IMG/VR virus record: IMGVR_UViG_2541047874_000002
Coordinates: 1-10,867 of that record
DNA: 10,867 nucleotides
Source of the DNA: a virus
Taxonomy: Duplodnaviria; Heunggongvirae; Uroviricota; Caudoviricetes
Strand: one strand, 5' to 3'
The notes under the pieces were generated by a model. The model ran no database searches. It had not been told where the DNA came from and saw nothing but the letters and a program-made list of their open reading frames with translations. The position numbers were made by a program, and so were the translations under genes. Positions 1,785 to 10,866 of the stretch are shown here, in pieces. How positions within the stretch are numbered: the stretch's first letter is position 1; each line of letters starts with the position of its first letter.

Positions 1785-2861
1785 TTACTCAAATAACTTT
1801 TTCACTTCATCAACTGTCTGAAGATAACGTTCACCCTCAATCTCAATACCGATTGCCTGACGACCTAACTTCAGCGCGGCTTTAATAGTAGAGCCTGATC
1901 CCATAAAGAAATCGGCAACGATATCTCCGGGGCGGGAACTACTTTTTATAATATGTTCCATCATCGCTGCAGGTTTTTCACATGGGTGCTTGCCAGGATA
2001 ATATTGCACAGGAGGAAACTCCCATACATCGGTATAAGGTACATCAGCAGTAACATGAAATGGGCGGCGCAAATTTTCATACTGAGCCTTCAAATCATCA
2101 TACTGCTTCTTTACTTCCTCATAACGCAATTTCAGATCGCTATAACGCTTTTCATGTTCTGAATAATCAACATTAAAAGGATATGGACACGGGACACCGA
2201 GTGAATCTGCCTTCCTGCGAAATAATTCGCATAGTTTATTAAAATCACTTAATGATGGAAGCCGCCACTGCGAATAAGAAAACCAGTGCGAACACATCTG
2301 CTTTCCTGTTGCTGAATTAATGTCTGCGGCTGATATATCTAACTGACGGCGAGCCAGCGAAAAAGCATCAATTAGTGGAGAAAAAATATTTTTTCTTAAA
2401 TCTGCACATTTTGAAGCATAACCTGACTGACCTTTAGCATAACCTGACGCGCCGTAATGCTCTGCAAATAATATTCTTTCAGTGGCAGGAAAATAAGCCC
2501 TTAAACTTTCTTTATGACAACCGCGCCACATACCACTGGGTTTAGCCCAAATGATATGGTTCAGAACATTGAAACGGTCGCGAGTTAATAATTCAATTTT
2601 TGACGCAAGGCGAGAGCCGGTAAACATATACAGGCTGCCATTAGGGGCCAATATCCGCCAAAATTCTGCCAAAAATTCATCAATCCACCCCAAAAAGTCA
2701 GCATCGCTATCCCACTGGTTATCCCATGCGTTAGCCTTTACGCCGAAGTATGGTGGGTCTGTTGCAATCAAATTGACCGAGTTATCAGGGATGGTTTTGA
2801 TAAATTGCAGAGAATCTGCGCAAACGAGTTGCGCGCCATGAATATTAGTGGTTTTGAACAT
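1785..2861 (-). CDS. Beta-class amino-DNA methyltransferase (N6-adenine or N4-cytosine), orphan
   Basis: DPPY catalytic motif near the N-terminus and FxGxG-type AdoMet motif (DFFMGSGST) near the C-terminus. Start ambiguous: ATG at 2861 (MFKTT...) or ATG at 2906; neither has a strong Shine-Dalgarno. No restriction-endonuclease partner seen. Confidence 0.8.
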   Translation of the reverse strand: MFKTTNIHGAQLVCADSLQFIKTIPDNSVNLIATDPPYFGVKANAWDNQWDSDADFLGWIDEFLAEFWRILAPNGSLYMFTGSRLASKIELLTRDRFNVLNHIIWAKPSGMWRGCHKESLRAYFPATERILFAEHYGASGYAKGQSGYASKCADLRKNIFSPLIDAFSLARRQLDISAADINSATGKQMCSHWFSYSQWRLPSLSDFNKLCELFRRKADSLGVPCPYPFNVDYSEHEKRYSDLKLRYEEVKKQYDDLKAQYENLRRPFHVTADVPYTDVWEFPPVQYYPGKHPCEKPAAMMEHIIKSSSRPGDIVADFFMGSGSTIKAALKLGRQAIGIEIEGERYLQTVDEVKKLFE

Positions 2862-2953
2862 AGCTATTATTTTTTTGCCTGGGTAAGCTAACCCGGCGAT
2901 GCGCATCGCGGGTGGGCTTTAGGTTCAGCCTATAGCTCTGGCATGGGTTGACC

Positions 2954-3018: not shown

Positions 3019-3057
3019 CTTGTTGGCTGTTGGGTACAAAAAACCCAACTTAACAAA

Positions 3058-3086: not shown

Positions 3087-3104
3087 GCTTTTTCGTTTTT
3101 GTGC

Positions 3105-3124
3105 TGTGCGACCGTGGTCGCACA
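3105..3124. repeat. Copy 2 of dispersed near-palindrome (TGTGCGACCGTGGTCGCACA), just downstream of the 3129..3356 gene stop and about 20 bp upstream of the candidate -35
   Basis: Read directly; opposite centre orientation to copy 1 (CCGTGG on plus); followed by AGTTTTT on the plus strand. Confidence 0.9.
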
Positions 3125-3128
3125 GTTT

Positions 3129-3369: not shown

Positions 3370-3591
3370 TCAATCTTGAAACTGGAAATCAACATCAGCC
3401 ATAAAGCGGTTCAACTCAGCCAGTTTTGGCCCCATAGTCCCAACTAAGCGACCAGCCAGTCGGTCTGCCAGGTTGGTACTGTTGAAACCATATTCCTTTT
3501 CGAAACGTTCAACCTTCTGCCACAACTCATACAGTTCGTTAGCTATCTCCGCAACGTCGTCGCGCATTTTTTCGTTACCTTGATAATTCAT
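3370..3591 (-). CDS. Hypothetical small acidic protein (about 73 aa)
   Basis: Internal ATG at 3591 has a perfect GGAGG Shine-Dalgarno 5-6 nt upstream; the track ORF extends to 3609. No family recognised. Confidence 0.5.
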   Translation of the reverse strand: MNYQGNEKMRDDVAEIANELYELWQKVERFEKEYGFNSTNLADRLAGRLVGTMGPKLAELNRFMADVDFQFQD

Positions 3592-3680
3592 AATATCCTC
3601 CAAATTCATATAGTTAGTGGGTTATTGCCCCTCAATGACACGAACTGTAACTCTGCCAAACGAACACATCCAGTGTTATT

Positions 3681-3698
3681 TTTCACTTTTTAGTGAAA
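3681..3698. promoter_or_regulatory. 18-bp perfect inverted repeat TTTCACT-TTTT-AGTGAAA upstream of higB-like gene (candidate operator)
   Basis: Read directly; lies in the divergent promoter region between the 3591 operon and the toxin-antitoxin operon. Confidence 0.4.
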
Positions 3699-3756
3699 TT
3701 TTTAATTTGCGCTTTTTTCTTGTTTTGGTGTATTTTATGGCTATGGAGGCTATAAT

Positions 3757-4068
3757 ATGTTTAACGTGATAACCCACCCTGCAGCACTGGATGAACTGCT
3801 TGAACTACCAGATGATTTGCGAGGTCGCATGACCAGATTAATTGAGCGACTGGAGAAGGAAGGCAACAAACTGAAGATGCCCCATAGCCGTGTAATAGGT
3901 GGAGGGCTTTTTGAACTACGAGTAGGGGATAAAAACATCGCAAGAACGCTGTACGCCTACGCGACTGGTAACGAAATTTATCTATTGCATGCATTTGTAA
4001 AAAAGACACAGAAAACACCGGTGAAGGCTATCGAAATCGCCAGAACTCGCCTGAAGGAGATGAACTGA
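3757..4068 (+). CDS. higB: Type II toxin, RelE/ParE superfamily, HigB / Gp49-like
   Basis: 103 aa; C-terminal LYAYATGNEIYLLHAFVKKTQKTP motif characteristic of HigB/Gp49-like toxins (recalled); GGAGG Shine-Dalgarno; toxin-first order; stop overlaps the antitoxin start (TGATG). Confidence 0.8.
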   Translation: MFNVITHPAALDELLELPDDLRGRMTRLIERLEKEGNKLKMPHSRVIGGGLFELRVGDKNIARTLYAYATGNEIYLLHAFVKKTQKTPVKAIEIARTRLKEMN

Positions 4069-4355
4069 TGAAAGCAAAAGGCATCCCGTTTAACGAAGTA
4101 AAGGAAAAACTACTCAACACTCCAGAAGCTATCAAAGGATATGAAGAGGCCGATAAAGAACTGGAGATGGTCGAAATGTTATACGAAATGAGGGAAAGAG
4201 CAGGTTTAACGAAGTCAGCTCTGGCAGAACGAATGGGATTGCGCCCGTCCGCCATCAGCCGCCTGGAAAGCAATCCTTTAGGGGCAAGTATGAAAACTTT
4301 ATCAAAATATGCCCAGGCATGTGGCGCAACAATTAATATTAATGCCGTCTATTGA
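4068..4355 (+). CDS. higA: Type II antitoxin, HTH XRE-family (HigA-like)
   Basis: 95 aa with helix-turn-helix segment (LTKSALAERMGLRPSAISRLE); translationally coupled to the upstream toxin. Confidence 0.8.
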   Translation: MKAKGIPFNEVKEKLLNTPEAIKGYEEADKELEMVEMLYEMRERAGLTKSALAERMGLRPSAISRLESNPLGASMKTLSKYAQACGATININAVY

Positions 4356-4372
4356 TTAATCACTTTTCACTA

Positions 4373-4392
4373 CCCCGTCCAGAAGGGCGGGG
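4373..4392 (+). terminator. Hairpin between convergent genes (putative higBA terminator)
   Basis: CCCCGTCC-AGAA-GGGCGGGG, 8-bp stem with one G-U pair, 18 nt after the higA stop; weak U-tract, so termination efficiency is uncertain. Confidence 0.35.
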
Positions 4393-4398
4393 TGTGTA

Positions 4399-4617: not shown

Positions 4618-4639
4618 TTAATTAAAAAAGGTTATTTGA

Positions 4640-4659
4640 TACTGTATAAAATTACAGGG
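4640..4659. promoter_or_regulatory. LexA (SOS) box TACTGTATAAAATTACAGGG
   Basis: Matches the E. coli LexA consensus TACTGT-(AT)4-ACAGTA at 16 of 20 positions with the CTGT-N8-ACAG core intact; sits immediately upstream of the 4399..4617 gene in an AT-rich intergenic region. Confidence 0.6.
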
Positions 4660-4859
4660 TAAAACTCAAATTTTATAGCCAACTTTCAATGGATTAACTG
4701 GGTTAATAGTTTTGTAGTCAGATATTTATGTTCTCTTCCTACGCCTCACTCAACCACCTACAGAAGCCCATCATCACCATAAGAAAAGCTCTTTTCGCTT
4801 CGTTTGCGTATCATTTCAAAAAGCAATGCCTTTTTATCCATTTATCCCTCCGTGACCAG

Positions 4860-7939: not shown

Positions 7940-8240
7940 TTTCTTGTGCGACCACGGTCGCACCCTCTCTGATTTCCAAGTAACGCTTAATCCAAAGATT
8001 TTCTATATGCTTATTACCTGGCTGATTTGATAAATACCAATCGGCAATTACAGACTGCTTATTACTATCTGGTCGTGTCCTGTAACCACAAGTTGGACAC
8101 CAAATAACATATTCATTTCTTACCCCCGAATACCTTAATTCTGGCTTCGACGGTTTCCTGAACATAACTTGTTTACAAAGGCAGAATGGCACTTCCTGCC
8201 CGATGGCGTTTGATGATTTCACTGCGCTTCTCCGCCGCAT
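7920..8240 (-). CDS. Small zinc-ribbon protein, possibly Lar-family restriction-alleviation-like
   Basis: CxC...CPTCG cysteine pairs (FCLC, CPTCG) about 22 aa apart; ATG at 8240 overlaps the upstream gene by 68 nt, so the start is uncertain (alternative ATG 8165 would lose the first Cys pair). Confidence 0.4.
   Translation of the reverse strand: MRRRSAVKSSNAIGQEVPFCLCKQVMFRKPSKPELRYSGVRNEYVIWCPTCGYRTRPDSNKQSVIADWYLSNQPGNKHIENLWIKRYLEIREGATVVAQENENNAI
7945..7963. repeat. Copy 3 of dispersed near-palindrome (TGTGCGACCACGGTCGCAC), overlapping the 3' end of the Lar-like ORF and 6 nt upstream of the 7939 ATG
   Basis: Read directly; on the coding (minus) strand it is read in frame as A-T-V-V-A-Q. 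Confidence 0.9.
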
Positions 8241-8883
8241 TTAATAATGCGGTTCGATTTAAGCTCAGACATCGCGACTTAATTAAAAGCCAGCGTTCTT
8301 TATAATCTTGTCTCCAGCTATCAATAGATATATTCAGTAGAAAACTCAGATGCCTGTCCTGTTCTCTCTCATCAACTGCCTCAGCACACGTAAGTTCTGA
8401 TTTAACCTGTTGTGCCGCGTAATAAATCAATTTCCGCATGGCTTTTTTCGTGGAGGCCTTCATTTTTTTAAAGCCGCCCCCCGAATGAGCAACCAGAAAA
8501 TCAAGCCATAACCACTGACAAACAATCACATCATTGTTGTAATCAGGCTTGCATCCGTAGCAATAATAAAGCCAGGCTGATTCCTCGTTATTCAACTGAC
8601 CAATAGCCCTGCGCCAGCTGGCGCTCTGAAAATCAATATCAGTGAGCAACATTGATGATTGTTTAAATGTTTTCCCCTGATGGAATCTAACCGGCTCAGC
8701 AGGAACGGACACTTCGTATGAGTTATCATCCCCCACACTGATTGACCGGACTGGTTTATTGTTAAACCGTCCTGATCTACCGAGACGCATCTGCTCAAGC
8801 TGGACCTCCAGAATGCCACGCTGGCGATAATGAACATCAGCCAATGCCGTAGAGACGCAGCTGCGTATATACTCAAGCTCCAC
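8173..8883 (-). CDS. Hypothetical early protein (236 aa from GTG 8883; alternative ATG 8790)
   Basis: Long ORF immediately downstream of the cro-like gene; contains CYGC; function not recognisable by eye (replication or regulatory role possible). Confidence 0.5.
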   Translation of the reverse strand: MELEYIRSCVSTALADVHYRQRGILEVQLEQMRLGRSGRFNNKPVRSISVGDDNSYEVSVPAEPVRFHQGKTFKQSSMLLTDIDFQSASWRRAIGQLNNEESAWLYYCYGCKPDYNNDVIVCQWLWLDFLVAHSGGGFKKMKASTKKAMRKLIYYAAQQVKSELTCAEAVDEREQDRHLSFLLNISIDSWRQDYKERWLLIKSRCLSLNRTALLNAAEKRSEIIKRHRAGSAILPL

Positions 8884-9094
8884 GCTTACGACTCTCCTTA
8901 ATCGACTGCTTTACCCGCCGAGTTGTAAAGTCACTCTTCAGCTTATAAGCAGTACGAACTTCAATATCGCTTTGCCGCAATGAAGGAATCTCTCCAGCGG
9001 TTAACCATTGGTAAACAGCTCCGGGTGTTACACCTACCCCTGCCGCTGCTTTTTCTACACTGCCAAAATGGCGAATAAGTTCTTCTGGTTTCAT
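8873..9094 (-). CDS. cro: Cro-like repressor (P22 Cro-type HTH)
   Basis: MKPEELIRHFGSVEKAAAGVGVTPGAVYQW resembles recalled P22 Cro (DVIDHFGTQRAVAKALGISDAAVSQW); divergent from the CI-like gene across an operator-rich region. No obvious Shine-Dalgarno. Confidence 0.7.
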   Translation of the reverse strand: MKPEELIRHFGSVEKAAAGVGVTPGAVYQWLTAGEIPSLRQSDIEVRTAYKLKSDFTTRRVKQSIKESRKRGA

Positions 9095-9185
9095 GTTGTT
9101 ATTATAAACAATAAACAACAATTAAAGCCAGCTATAATAAATAAATTTTATAGCCAGCTATAAGAAGATCATTTATGATTACAGT
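9095..9185. promoter_or_regulatory. Immunity-region divergent promoter/operator segment
   Basis: Direct repeat of GCCAGCTATAA (9127-9137, 9153-9163); 16-bp near-palindrome TTATAGCCAGCTATAA (9148-9163) and half-related TTAAAGCCAGCTATAA (9122-9137); TTGTT...AACAA repeats at 9096-9120. The CI-like ATG has no Shine-Dalgarno, so a leaderless mRNA is possible. Confidence 0.55.
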
Positions 9186-9782
9186 ATGAAAACACGAGGC
9201 GAACGACTGAAAGCACGCCGTTTAGAGATGAAGCTGACGTTGCGAGAAGTTGCTGAGGCTGTCGATATCTCTATAGCAGGCGTCCAAAACTTAGAACGTG
9301 GCGACGTAATGCCGTCACTGGAGATAGGTATTGCCCTGGCTAAGTGCTTACGCAAGCCAGTGCATTGGGTGCTATATGGGACAGAATATGACCCTGATCG
9401 CATTCCTGTTATTGGCACAACTGAAAGTGGGCCGGATGAAGAGTGGAAGCCGGGACAGGTTCCAAATACTGAGCGATTCCTGCCATTCATCAGCCAGCGC
9501 AATACTGTGTATGCGTTAACTATCAGCAATCTTACGCAGGGAAACTATCAGCCAGGCGATTTTCTCCTGGTCGATTCTGCGCTGGAACTGGTCCCCGGCG
9601 AGGATGTTCTGGTTCGTGATACTGCAGGAAATATCACTATCCAGCGCCTGGCCCGTTTTGATGATGAAAATTACTATCTGGATGGAACAAACTCACAACG
9701 CGCCATCTTCAGGAAAAGCGATCTTGAATTTGTTCACCAAATAGTCGGAACGATCAAATCATTCATGGTTGAGGGTAGATGA
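9186..9782 (+). CDS. CI-like prophage repressor: N-terminal XRE HTH plus LexA/S24-like C-terminal domain with apparently degenerate catalytic Lys
   Basis: 198 aa; HTH (LTLREVAEAVDISIAGVQNLERG); C-terminal PGDFLLVD...NITIQRL aligns by eye with LexA GDLLAV...VTVKRL but has Gln where the catalytic Lys would be. Confidence 0.75.
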   Translation: MKTRGERLKARRLEMKLTLREVAEAVDISIAGVQNLERGDVMPSLEIGIALAKCLRKPVHWVLYGTEYDPDRIPVIGTTESGPDEEWKPGQVPNTERFLPFISQRNTVYALTISNLTQGNYQPGDFLLVDSALELVPGEDVLVRDTAGNITIQRLARFDDENYYLDGTNSQRAIFRKSDLEFVHQIVGTIKSFMVEGR

Positions 9783-10026: not shown

Positions 10027-10866
10027 AATGACATTAAACGATTTCTATGCGGATCGCTTTGGCAGCGATCCGTTCTCGCTAATTGAAGCAGCACGGGATG
10101 AACTAACCGAGCTGGCACAGATGGCTGGTATCAACTGGCCTGCCTGTTCCGACAACATCCAACTCAACCCTCGCGGGGGGGTTGAGCGTTACTCTTCATA
10201 CAATAAAACATCTCCAGAAGCTCTCGAAAAGAGCCTGAAAGGACGCGTAGAAATTTACTCCAGGCTGGAACACAGCAAAGGGATTGATTACCCGTTCATT
10301 AACTTCGTCCATAAAGGCAGCGATGCTGGCTCATGGAGCGGTTTCTCCTTCCTGTTTTCTGAATATCGCCGTGAGCAACAACGGAATAATGCGACCGTGG
10401 TCGCACAACCGGAAGAAGAACGGGAAAGAATAGAACGTCAGGCCGAAGCACGTCGTCGCCGTGAAGAACAAAAACGAATTAATGACCTGAAAAACAACCA
10501 AATGGACCATGAACGTTTGCTGGGATGGCTGGCATTCCACAGCGCGTGGGAACATGCTCAGGCTGAAGACGGCTCATGGCCATATGCGATTAAAAAAGGT
10601 ATTCGTGACGTTTTTAGTTCATGTGATGTGCGTCGCGTGACCAGTCACGACAGTGCGAAATGGAGCCGGGGGCCAACCACATATATGGCTATCCCTCTGG
10701 CTCACCTGGACGGTCGTTATGATGGTCGTATTGTGGGTTGGCAGCGAATCGACAAACAAGGTGGGAAATACCAGACCAGCGCAGTAACCAGCGGCGATTT
10801 CGTCGGTGCCTGCTTTGTTATCGGTGAGCTGAAAGGGGCGCAAAACATCGCTGTTACAGAAGGTTT
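10027..10866 (+). CDS. Primase-like replication protein, N-terminal part (truncated by window end)
   Basis: Frame open from ATG 10027 to the window end (280 codons, verified codon by codon); charged linker EEERERIERQAEARRRREEQKR; ends in IAVTEGF, resembling the start of a TOPRIM acidic motif. Not in the ORF track because it has no stop. Confidence 0.5.
10390..10407. repeat. Copy 4 of dispersed near-palindrome (TGCGACCGTGGTCGCACA) inside the primase-like coding sequence
   Basis: Read directly; encodes A-T-V-V-A-Q in the plus frame, just before the charged linker. Confidence 0.9.

Follow-up and report, generated by a model that had tools for sequence, protein, structure and literature searches.

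Two plus-strand genes in the window, as the whole stretch of 10,867 nucleotides analysed here is called, very probably form an addiction module, a type II toxin-antitoxin pair of the Gp49/Tad-Ata family, on an N15-like linear phage-plasmid. The module is an already known one, since the pair is orthologous to gp49-gp48 of phage N15. According to papers that cite Dziewit et al. 2007 (J Bacteriol 189:1983), N15 gp49-gp48 is a plasmid-stabilising toxin-antitoxin locus of the Tad-Ata type. The function ascribed to the module below is taken from such published orthologues and from the family; the assignment to the family, the orthology, the anatomy of the operon, the selection acting on the genes, the pocket residues and the plasmid context come from the present analysis. 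The features of the locus and its surroundings are collected in Table 1.

Table 1. Features of the toxin-antitoxin locus and partitioning-site palindromes, in window coordinates
Feature	Position	Strand	Details
Centromere palindromes TGCGACC(A/G)(C/T)GGTCGCA	65-84, 3104-3125, 7946-7963, 10390-10405		script search
Interrupted inverted repeat TTTCACT-TTTT-AGTGAAA	3681..3698	.	7-bp arms, 4-nt spacer; candidate binding site of an antitoxin dimer or toxin-antitoxin complex
Predicted sigma-70 operon promoter	3707..3736	+	-35 TTGCGC 3707-3712; -10 TGTATT 3729-3734
Toxin Shine-Dalgarno GGAGG	3745..3749	+	7 nt 5' of ATG; sequence
Toxin gene, orthologue of N15 gp49 (Tad / PF_gp49)	3757..4068	+	103 aa, PF05973
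Antitoxin Shine-Dalgarno AAGGAG	4054..4059	+	within 3' end of toxin gene; sequence
Antitoxin gene, orthologue of N15 gp48 (Ata), XRE/Cro-type helix-turn-helix	4068..4355	+	95 aa, HTH_3
GC-rich hairpin, 9-bp stem, AGAA loop	4372..4393	.	ACCCCGTCC-AGAA-GGGCGGGGT

The toxin and antitoxin genes

Both open reading frames put forward in a first-pass annotation of this DNA are present as claimed, and so is the toxin-first order, in which the toxin stop codon TGA (4066-4068) and the antitoxin start codon ATG (4068-4070) share one base within TGATG. The genes of N15 gp49-gp48 are likewise overlapping and toxin-first. The TGATG overlap, together with the position of the antitoxin Shine-Dalgarno sequence inside the toxin gene, suggests that translation of the two genes is coupled. 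This AAGGAG sequence is kept in 7 of 7 aligned relatives, and the GGAGG of the toxin gene is kept in most aligned relatives (GGGGG in LSJC7). Strict and loose consensus scans of 3850-4068 returned no internal sigma-70-like promoter for the antitoxin gene, although a weak promoter would escape them. Such a promoter upstream of the antitoxin gene has reportedly been described for the module group.

The protein family search assigns the toxin to Pfam family Gp49 (PF05973), which is matched over profile positions 1-90 of 90 (E 2.5e-29; 101.6 bits, with a cutoff of 23.9). At E <= 0.1, the only further Pfam output was a sub-threshold match to PilZNR, and neither of the canonical HigB families (PF05015, PF09907) was returned. 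The earlier description of the toxin as HigB-like holds in terms of the RelE superfamily and the gene order, but the family is Gp49/Tad. In effect, the canonical HigB-HigA systems of Rts1 and E. coli K-12 share with the module the superfamily, the toxin-first order, the helix-turn-helix (HTH) antitoxin, plasmid stabilisation and palindromic promoter operators, while their toxins fall into other Pfam families.

The closest parallels of known structure are the M. tuberculosis HigB(TAC)/HigB1 (7NBU, 7AWK) and S. pneumoniae HigB-HigA (6AF3), whose toxins belong to the same Pfam family as the window toxin. Among PDB sequences, the toxin matches S. pneumoniae HigB (6af3) at E 5.5e-5 and M. tuberculosis HigB1 (7nbu) at E 0.035. 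These solved systems combine a toxin-first order with an XRE-HTH antitoxin, as the window module does, and have the motif F-x-K-K-T-Q-K-T-P and the E-L-R...N...R pocket residues in common with the window toxin, although the match is weak and covers part of each chain only. The residues proposed to form the catalytic pocket were described for ribosome-bound M. tuberculosis HigB(TAC) (PMC9098466). When the PDB-sequence alignment is read against that work, 9 of 9 are kept in the toxin: K58, E66, R68, N73, R77, F93, K95, Q98 and K99 correspond to R45, E53, R55, N60, R63, F80, K82, Q85 and K86, with R63, the equivalent of R77, offset by one within a loop. There is no equivalent of R117, because the shorter C-terminal helix ends the protein 3 residues past the K113 equivalent. 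A further difference is that the window module has no gene for a SecB-like chaperone.

PF_gp49 toxins are listed in the literature as ribosome-dependent mRNases with a toxin-first gene order, and the window toxin is predicted to be a ribosome-dependent mRNA endonuclease of the RelE superfamily. A single-sequence AlphaFold2 model, too weak for a fold search or to confirm the fold (mean pLDDT 45.3), places its elements in the order H-H-E-E-E-E-H, which would agree with the RelE/BECR fold of a four-stranded sheet with flanking helices and a long C-terminal helix. In Kpn74, whose sequence is 98% identical, small indels shift the reading frame and make the toxin look truncated; they may be sequencing errors.

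The second gene encodes an HTH antitoxin of the XRE type, as had been proposed. It matches Pfam HTH_3 with residues 38-88 (E 1.6e-12), among PDB sequences it is matched best by HipB, HigA2 and the HigA chain of 6af3, and PHROG 1373, to which it belongs, is a transcriptional regulator. The antitoxin has 86% amino-acid identity to N15 gp48, and the toxin 92.2% to N15 gp49; the nucleotide identity of the pair to N15 is only 76-80% owing to the saturation of synonymous sites. Both genes are under strong purifying selection, with a toxin dN/dS of 0.03-0.04 (dS 1.5-2.1) and a low antitoxin dN (0.08-0.12), the dS of the antitoxin against distant lineages being too saturated to compute.

The carrier and the history of the module

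The module is carried by a linear plasmid-prophage, not by an integrated prophage. By synteny, the IMG/VR window represents the right arm of a linear phage-plasmid of the N15-like (Ravinvirus) type, with a gene order (cB, cro, Q, exonuclease, gp46-gp51, methylase, holin-lysozyme-Rz) common to N15, phiKO2 and YDC107_1. Every matching place in complete E. coli genomes is plasmid-borne (19 of 19, with none chromosomal), and PLSDB gave 37 matches, of which 35 are non-mobilizable plasmids, many about 46 kb long. Additionally, the window contains 4 copies of a dispersed centromere palindrome, identical to the sequence that phiKO2 has under the annotation "putative plasmid partitioning site". An Rfam search of the whole window gave no match.

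N15 and phiKO2 carry the pair at this place and in this orientation too, between gp50 and gp47, and its flanks, gp50/gp51 and gp47/gp46, are in conserved synteny with N15. In YDC107_1, an annotated relative that is 94% identical, the toxin-antitoxin pair provides the sole plus-strand genes between cro/Q and the lysis genes, which bears out the first-pass claim of a single plus-strand operon between the early genes and the lysis module.

The same annotation had called the module a moron, an accessory insert with transcription of its own within a phage operon. The opposite strand, a predicted promoter of its own and a predicted downstream hairpin fit that description, whereas variable presence and a deviant G+C content do not appear. 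All N15-like relatives examined have the module at this site, and its G+C content is 0.44-0.46 versus 0.455 for the window. This fixed position and the G+C match to the surroundings point to an ancestral maintenance module and not to a recent insertion. The same cassette also occurs on unrelated replicons, namely IncK2/Z plasmids, IncF plasmids and chromosomes. In the copy on an E. albertii IncK plasmid, either an 18-bp deletion beside the repeat or a simple homology breakpoint (megablast boundary at 3716) fits equally well.

The control region and the inverted repeat

The -10 element of the predicted operon promoter is preceded by TG at 3726-3727, and TATTTT at 3731-3736 is an alternative -10. 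Because position 2 of TGTATT is not the usual A, this may be a weak promoter. In N15 the -10 is TATATT instead, and the promoter aligned in N15, phiKO2, KpLi5 and E. cloacae reads TTGyGT-N17-TATATT; in other relatives the -10 is TATAAT (Entomohabitans, Photorhabdus) or TAGAAT (LSJC7). A strict consensus scan did not call the operon promoter, and the sole promoter-like site that it returned, inside gp50, is irrelevant. A looser script gave two candidate promoters. One candidate, CTGCCA-N18-TATTTT (3653-3682), would place the repeat over the transcription start; it was dropped because its -35 and TG vary, whereas the downstream TATATT/TATAAT box is kept in every lineage.

Upstream of the predicted operon promoter lies the inverted repeat, which had been described as a perfect 18-bp palindrome. 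That description is wrong: positions 3681-3698 read TTTCACTTTTTAGTGAAA, while the reverse complement is TTTCACTAAAAAGTGAAA, so that only the 7-bp arms are symmetric and the TTTT spacer is not palindromic. A repeat search with a seed of 6 missed this 7+4+7 arrangement, and a script verified it. Its centre lies 5' of the -35, about 52 bp before the point where transcription is predicted to start. The chance of at least one such repeat in 147 bp of the same AT-rich composition is about 0.085, and the window contains 32 overlapping matches of this class versus 6.9 in Markov shuffles, most of them being other, longer palindromes. What raises the repeat above chance is its conservation and not its own statistics. 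It is 17-18/18 identical in N15, phiKO2 and KpLi5, against an identity of only 25-55% at four-fold degenerate sites; the N15 copy is fully identical.

The repeat is a credible but unproven operator of the toxin-antitoxin operon. Judged by the conservation of its footprint and its travel with the cassette, the proposal of an upstream operator remains a reasonable one. Symmetric variants occupy the same position in distant relatives (Xenorhabdus, LSJC7, Entomohabitans, Erwinia), with a modest covariation signal, equalled in 9 of 500 shuffles and confounded by phylogeny, and asymmetric changes of one arm occur in KpLi5, Pseudocitrobacter and E. cloacae. The repeat accompanies the cassette into a chromosomal context in Xenorhabdus and onto the IncF plasmid pSalMiami. 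Moreover, the recognition helix of the antitoxin, PSAISRLE, stays the same wherever most of the half-site core TTTCAC is preserved, and is altered where the half-site is altered. The position is less typical, as the operators of characterised HigA systems (Rts1, K-12) overlap the promoter and this repeat is upstream of the -35.

An alternative, which seems unlikely, is that 3681-3698 forms a hairpin, in RNA or DNA, and works as an insulator or weak intrinsic terminator, protecting the toxin-antitoxin promoter against transcription that arrives from the left. The N15 record annotates the identical 18-bp sequence as a putative rho-independent terminator stem-loop, the stem is followed on the plus strand by ATTTTTAATTT, double substitutions preserve its symmetry, and an A-to-G change in the E. 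cloacae variant retains a G-U pair. However, the stem has just 7 A/T-rich pairs (about -6 kcal/mol, z -2.2 to -3.1), the terminator scan does not call it, and no upstream plus-strand gene has a transcript that needs stopping. Arm changes in KpLi5/Limoniibacter and Pseudocitrobacter break pairs, and the half-site centres are 11 bp apart, a spacing that suits a dimeric HTH protein.

There is little to recommend the view that the repeat serves as a promoter or regulator site of the divergent minus-strand gp50-gp51 unit. It does lie in the divergent intergenic region 3592-3756, adjoining a conserved block at 3631-3655. Nevertheless, versions of it stand at the left edge of homology, with neither gp50 nor the 3631-3655 block, both in the Xenorhabdus chromosome (formate dehydrogenase flanks) and on pSalMiami, and neither strict nor loose scans give a minus-strand promoter-like site across it. 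The block at 3631-3655 is itself a second conserved element of this intergenic region.

At the other end of the operon, the proposed hairpin after the antitoxin gene is confirmed; it lies in the 43 bp that separate this gene from the convergent gp47 gene. Folding computed for both strands gave -23.2 kcal/mol for its 61-nt context (z -4.2). It is without a U tract and is common to YDC107_1, whereas N15 has a canonical terminator, a stem followed by a T-run, at the same spot. The terminator consensus scan of the window called nothing, this hairpin included. It is probably the transcript 3' end, or an insulator, for both directions.

Proposed function and alternative roles

In the lysogenic state, the operon would be transcribed rightwards from its own sigma-70 promoter, opposing the early-right phage operon, and the toxin and antitoxin would be produced by coupled translation. 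The HTH antitoxin would neutralise the toxin and, alone or together with it, could bind TTTCACT-N4-AGTGAAA 5' of the -35, so that the operon is autoregulated. After loss of the plasmid-prophage, the antitoxin would be degraded, and the freed toxin would be expected to cut mRNA in the ribosomal A site and arrest growth. Such an arrest would counter-select plasmid-free segregants. A comparable role is that of phd-doc, the addiction module of the plasmid-prophage P1, though its proteins are unrelated (a Fic/Doc kinase toxin) and its order is antitoxin-first. The earlier suggestion of prophage stabilisation agrees with the role that citing papers give to the N15 orthologue, but it needs rewording for a carrier that is a linear plasmid-prophage and not an integrated one.

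Defence of the lysogen against other phages, by abortive infection or superinfection exclusion, could instead be the main selected role, with plasmid stabilisation secondary; this is possible, although we consider it improbable. Prophage-borne toxin-antitoxin modules often serve in defence. A PF_gp49 HigB of an E. coli toxin-antitoxin-chaperone module has been reported in abortive infection (PMC11980606), and the C-terminal half of the window toxin matches the PADLOC model NsnC (E 2.6e-7). That match, however, represents one domain of a 293-position model and not a system, and the window module is without the chaperone gene. In addition, the papers that cite work on the orthologous N15 pair call it stabilising, and the great majority of the close relatives found are carried by plasmids and phage-plasmids. 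One role does not preclude the other.

A more elaborate possibility, to which we give a low probability, is that prophage induction drives antisense transcription over the module, lowers the amount of antitoxin and thereby deliberately releases the toxin in lytic growth or superinfection. Antisense transcription upon induction could occur because the early-right operon is convergent with the module and separated from it just by the hairpin without a U tract. If this were true, the module would be a switch-coupled device of host shut-off or abortive infection in addition to an addiction system, and the repeat at -52 would be something other than a simple repressor site. It is least probable of all that the toxin has lost its catalytic activity and the pair serves only as a transcription regulator, the role put forward for M. 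tuberculosis HigB2 and HigB3: non-toxic members of the Gp49 family do exist (PMC9098466), but the residues absent in HigB2/HigB3 (the K58, N73, F93 and K99 equivalents) are present here as R45, N60, F80 and K86, and the toxin dN/dS is 0.03.

With the plasmid-addiction role preferred, the significance of the locus lies mainly in its correct annotation, as the textbook addiction system of N15-type phage-plasmids, whose toxin family is named after N15 gp49. The occurrence of the cassette on IncK2/Z and IncF plasmids and on chromosomes illustrates how maintenance modules are exchanged between phage-plasmids and ordinary plasmids. Finally, the inverted repeat, which is constrained, borne by the cassette and subject to symmetric changes, provides a concrete candidate operator for a family about whose regulation little has been described.

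Identity of the toxin–antitoxin module

The module is the already described gp49-gp48 (Tad-Ata, or PF_gp49) addiction module of an N15-type phage-plasmid, so that the toxin–antitoxin interpretation of the first-pass annotation, which had called it HigB/HigA-like, was right in substance; both plus-strand ORFs also lie where it had placed them. In a Pfam search, the only toxin family matched by the toxin was Gp49 (PF05973), which takes its name from N15 gp49; the match runs over the full length and scores 101.6 bits (E 2.5e-29), the cutoff being 23.9. The antitoxin matched HTH_3 (E 1.6e-12) and related XRE models in Pfam and, weakly, HipB, MqsA-family and Y4mF-type antitoxin models in NCBIfam. 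Among PDB sequences, the toxin resembled HigB of S. pneumoniae (6af3_A, E 5.5e-5) and HigB1 of M. tuberculosis (7nbu, 7awk), while the antitoxin resembled HipB, HigA2 and the HigA chain that accompanies HigB in 6af3. In tblastn against phage genomes, toxin identity was 100% in PhiR46_1 and YDC107_1 (an annotated Escherichia phage, 94% identical to the window), 92.2% for N15 gene 49 and 91.3% for phiKO2 Gp49. The N15 and phiKO2 records share one layout, with gp51 and gp50 running leftwards, gp49 and gp48 rightwards, and gp47 and gp46 leftwards.

Tad-Ata pairs a COG4679/DUF891 toxin, linked to RelE, with an XRE antitoxin, and N15 gp49 is a named member (Makarova et al., PMC2701414). Dziewit et al. 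2007 is the reference given in several papers for toxin–antitoxin-stabilising systems homologous to tad-ata in N15 and the SXT element, and the N15 locus has been termed the 'chaperone-less gp49-gp48 locus' (PMC3581621). In a 2025 survey (PMC11980606), PF_gp49 toxins are listed as mRNases that depend on the ribosome, their genes preceding those of the antitoxins; one member belongs to an abortive-infection toxin–antitoxin–chaperone module. Additionally, the C-terminal half of the toxin (residues 43-95) matched positions 229-282 of the 293 in the PADLOC model NsnC (E 2.6e-7), which suggests that a RelE-like domain is embedded in this candidate defence protein.

In ribosome-bound M. tuberculosis HigB(TAC), analyzed by cryo-EM, the catalytic pocket consists of K58, E66, R68, N73, R77, F93, K95, Q98 and K99, and a long C-terminal helix is common to Gp49-like toxins (PMC9098466). 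These positions correspond in a HMMER alignment to R45, E53, R55, N60, R63, F80, K82, Q85 and K86 of the window toxin, R63 lying one residue off register in a loop, and all nine are either unchanged or replaced by a similar residue. Those residues that HigB2 and HigB3, which are not toxic, reportedly lack are all found in the window toxin. A single-sequence AlphaFold2 model of the toxin (pLDDT 45.3) is too poor to use; its helix/strand order matches the fold. Compared with N15, phiKO2 and KpLi5, the toxin gene is 79-80% and the antitoxin gene 71-76% identical in nucleotides, and their products are 89-92% and 83-86% identical in amino acids. The respective dN values are 0.06-0.07 and 0.08-0.12. 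For the toxin gene, dS is 1.5-2.1 and dN/dS 0.03-0.04; for the antitoxin gene, dS is saturated beyond computing and dN/dS is not computable. These values and the retained pocket residues are evidence for a functional module.

The phage-plasmid and its cassette

In gene order (cB repressor, cro, Q, exonuclease, gp46-gp51, DNA methylase, holin, lysozyme, Rz), the window agrees with N15, phiKO2 and YDC107_1; it constitutes the right arm of a linear, N15-like phage-plasmid. The palindrome dispersed in four copies is identical to a sequence that the phiKO2 record labels 'putative plasmid partitioning site', which marks the copies as dispersed centromere sites of the N15 type. The 2.3-kb module region occurs in 17 of 5,426 complete E. 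coli genomes, at 19 places that are all on plasmids (none chromosomal), and on 37 PLSDB plasmids, of which 35 are non-mobilizable and many measure about 46 kb. Since the element is a linear phage-plasmid with matches on plasmids, 'prophage' here means plasmid-prophage.

Positions of features in the window
Feature	Position	Strand	Detail
Palindrome TGCGACC(A/G)(C/T)GGTCGCA, four copies	65-84, 3104-3125, 7946-7963, 10390-10405		(C)TGTGCGACC(A/G)(C/T)GGTCGCACA(G)
DNA methylase ORF	1785-2906		373 aa
Inverted repeats, gp51/methylase	2956-2977, 3029-3049		AGGACAAGCTGCAACTTGTCCT and GTTGGGTACAAAAAACCCAAC
Conserved non-coding block	3631-3655		CTCAATGACACGAACTGTAACTCTG
Interrupted inverted repeat	3681-3698		TTTCACTTTTTAGTGAAA, reverse complement TTTCACTAAAAAGTGAAA
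GGAGG before toxin gene	3745-3749	+	sequence
Toxin ORF	3757..4068	+	103 aa, ORF listing
AAGGAG before antitoxin gene	4054-4059	+	sequence
Antitoxin ORF	4068..4355	+	95 aa, ORF listing
Half-site TTTCACT	4365-4371		solitary
Hairpin 3' of antitoxin gene	4372-4393		9-bp stem
cro	8873-9121	-	
Palindrome, cro/cB gap	9148-9163		TTATAGCCAGCTATAA, perfect
cB repressor gene	9186-9782	+	

The palindrome in the 64-bp gap between cro and the cB gene is likely an immunity-region repressor operator. The two inverted repeats between gp51 and the methylase gene presumably form a Q-dependent late control region; N15 and phiKO2 annotate a late promoter and a terminator there. The methylase accessory gene itself varies in length among relatives, as N15 gene 52 has 855 nt and the phiKO2 gene 1,062 nt.

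One base belongs both to the toxin stop codon TGA (4066-4068) and to the ATG (4068-4070) of the antitoxin gene, and in YDC107_1 the two genes are the only plus-strand genes from cro/Q to the lysis cassette. The hairpin proposed after the antitoxin gene is real (61-nt context fold -23.2 kcal/mol, z -4.2, the other strand being similar); it has no U tract, and a terminator scan of the window gave no call there. The convergent antitoxin–gp47 spacer (4356-4398; 4625-4665 in comparison locus L003) has been replaced between lineages: the window lineage has this GC hairpin, the spacer of N15 holds a terminator of canonical stem-plus-T-run form, and that of KpLi5 a third, different sequence. The half-site immediately 5' of the hairpin (TTTTACT in YDC107_1) may be a chance occurrence in an A/T-rich stretch.

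The cassette had been described as a moron inserted against the surrounding transcription. Its own promoter-like elements, 3' hairpin and opposite orientation, together with its standing alone on plasmids and chromosomes, indicate that it is mobile, and to that extent the description holds. There is no sign of a recent insertion within N15-like elements: the module occupies the identical site in every N15-like relative found, and its G+C equals that of its neighbours (0.44-0.46 against 0.455 for the window). On the E. albertii IncK2/Z plasmid pEA26_3 (L007 2440-3140), the cassette occurs alone, intact and 94% identical, flanked on one side by a topoisomerase gene and on the other by a hypothetical gene beside a DotA/TraY-family gene; upstream lies a degenerate TTTCATTTTTTGGTGAAA, which may reflect a recombination breakpoint or the loss of 18 bp. 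The copy on pSalMiami, an IncF plasmid of Salmonella (L008 2490-3150), is frameshifted, truncated and near repA. Chromosomal copies also exist. The toxin–antitoxin region of Klebsiella phage Kpn74 (L005 1501-2100), isolated from a river, is 98% identical to KpLi5, and small indels, either sequencing error or decay, frameshift both genes.

The upstream inverted repeat as candidate operator

Upstream of the toxin gene, the first-pass annotation had reported a perfect 18-bp palindrome. An inverted repeat is present, but its reverse complement shows that it is not a perfect palindrome: 7-bp arms flank a non-palindromic TTTT. Its own statistics are weak, as chance alone would place at least one repeat of this size in 8.5% of 147-bp stretches matched in composition; with up to three mismatches, the pattern occurs once in the window. 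It is the comparison with relatives that makes it interesting. Against N15, phiKO2 and KpLi5, 17-18 of its 18 positions and 13-14 of the 15 preceding ones (3666-3680) are identical, compared with about 40-65% at 3610-3630, 3656-3665 and 3699-3706, and 25-55% at four-fold degenerate sites of both genes.

The conserved non-coding block further upstream is likewise identical to these relatives at 23-24 of 25 positions despite saturated neutral sites. It is absent beside cassettes outside N15-like elements and thus belongs to the phage backbone, towards gp50; a search of it gave no promoter-like match. For gp50 (start region 3589-3609), the mechanical ORF starts at 3609, and an ATG at 3591, preceded by GGAGG (3597-3601, minus strand), yields the 73-aa product that the N15, phiKO2 and YDC107_1 records carry. 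Counted from that ATG, the divergent intergenic region spans 3592-3756.

A one-genome-per-species scan yielded relatives in other Enterobacterales at 57-92% toxin identity, in which repeat variants keep the window's spacing to the -10 box and start codon. At the equivalent position, Entomohabitans has TTTCACTT-TT-AAGTGAAA, Xenorhabdus TTTCTCT-TTTT-AGAGAAA, Enterobacteriaceae LSJC7 TTTCTATT-TT-AATAGAAA and Erwinia TTTAGTTATAACTAAA, both arms being changed with symmetry kept. In a 13-sequence alignment, two rows of which are poorly aligned, 82% of cells pair and three of eight pairs show double changes; the covariation score is 0.163 versus 0.085 in shuffles, and 9 of 500 shuffles attain it. These figures are supportive without being strong. 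The Xenorhabdus copy adjoins formate dehydrogenase genes, no N15 gene lies near it, and its homology to the window begins at the repeat. In the decayed pSalMiami copy, homology begins at window position 3669, to the immediate left of the repeat. The predicted antitoxin recognition helix reads PSAISRLE in nine of nine sequences with the half-site core TTTCAC or a one-arm difference, and in sequences with another half-site it reads SGINSLM, SGINRLE or STITQLE, a correspondence confounded by phylogeny. A distant Gp49-type cassette of Stx phages (Shigella phage 75/02; toxin 48% identical) encodes an antitoxin with another recognition helix, and a perfect 16-bp palindrome of its own, ATAACAAATTTGTTAT, adjoins the toxin start on the 5' side (L006 1395-1440).

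Taken together, conservation, symmetric changes, co-travel, the helix pattern and the 75/02 palindrome make the repeat a part of the cassette and, most simply, an operator, a role that is somewhat more probable than not. Three points count against this role: the repeat is centred near -52, 5' of the conserved TTGyGT-N17-TATATT promoter instead of covering -35/-10; in the N15 record the identical sequence is labelled a putative terminator; and some lineages carry one-arm changes. This comparative evidence for a constrained, co-travelling candidate operator is the only point that is even mildly new. For the module itself, a plasmid-prophage carrier provides an obvious job.
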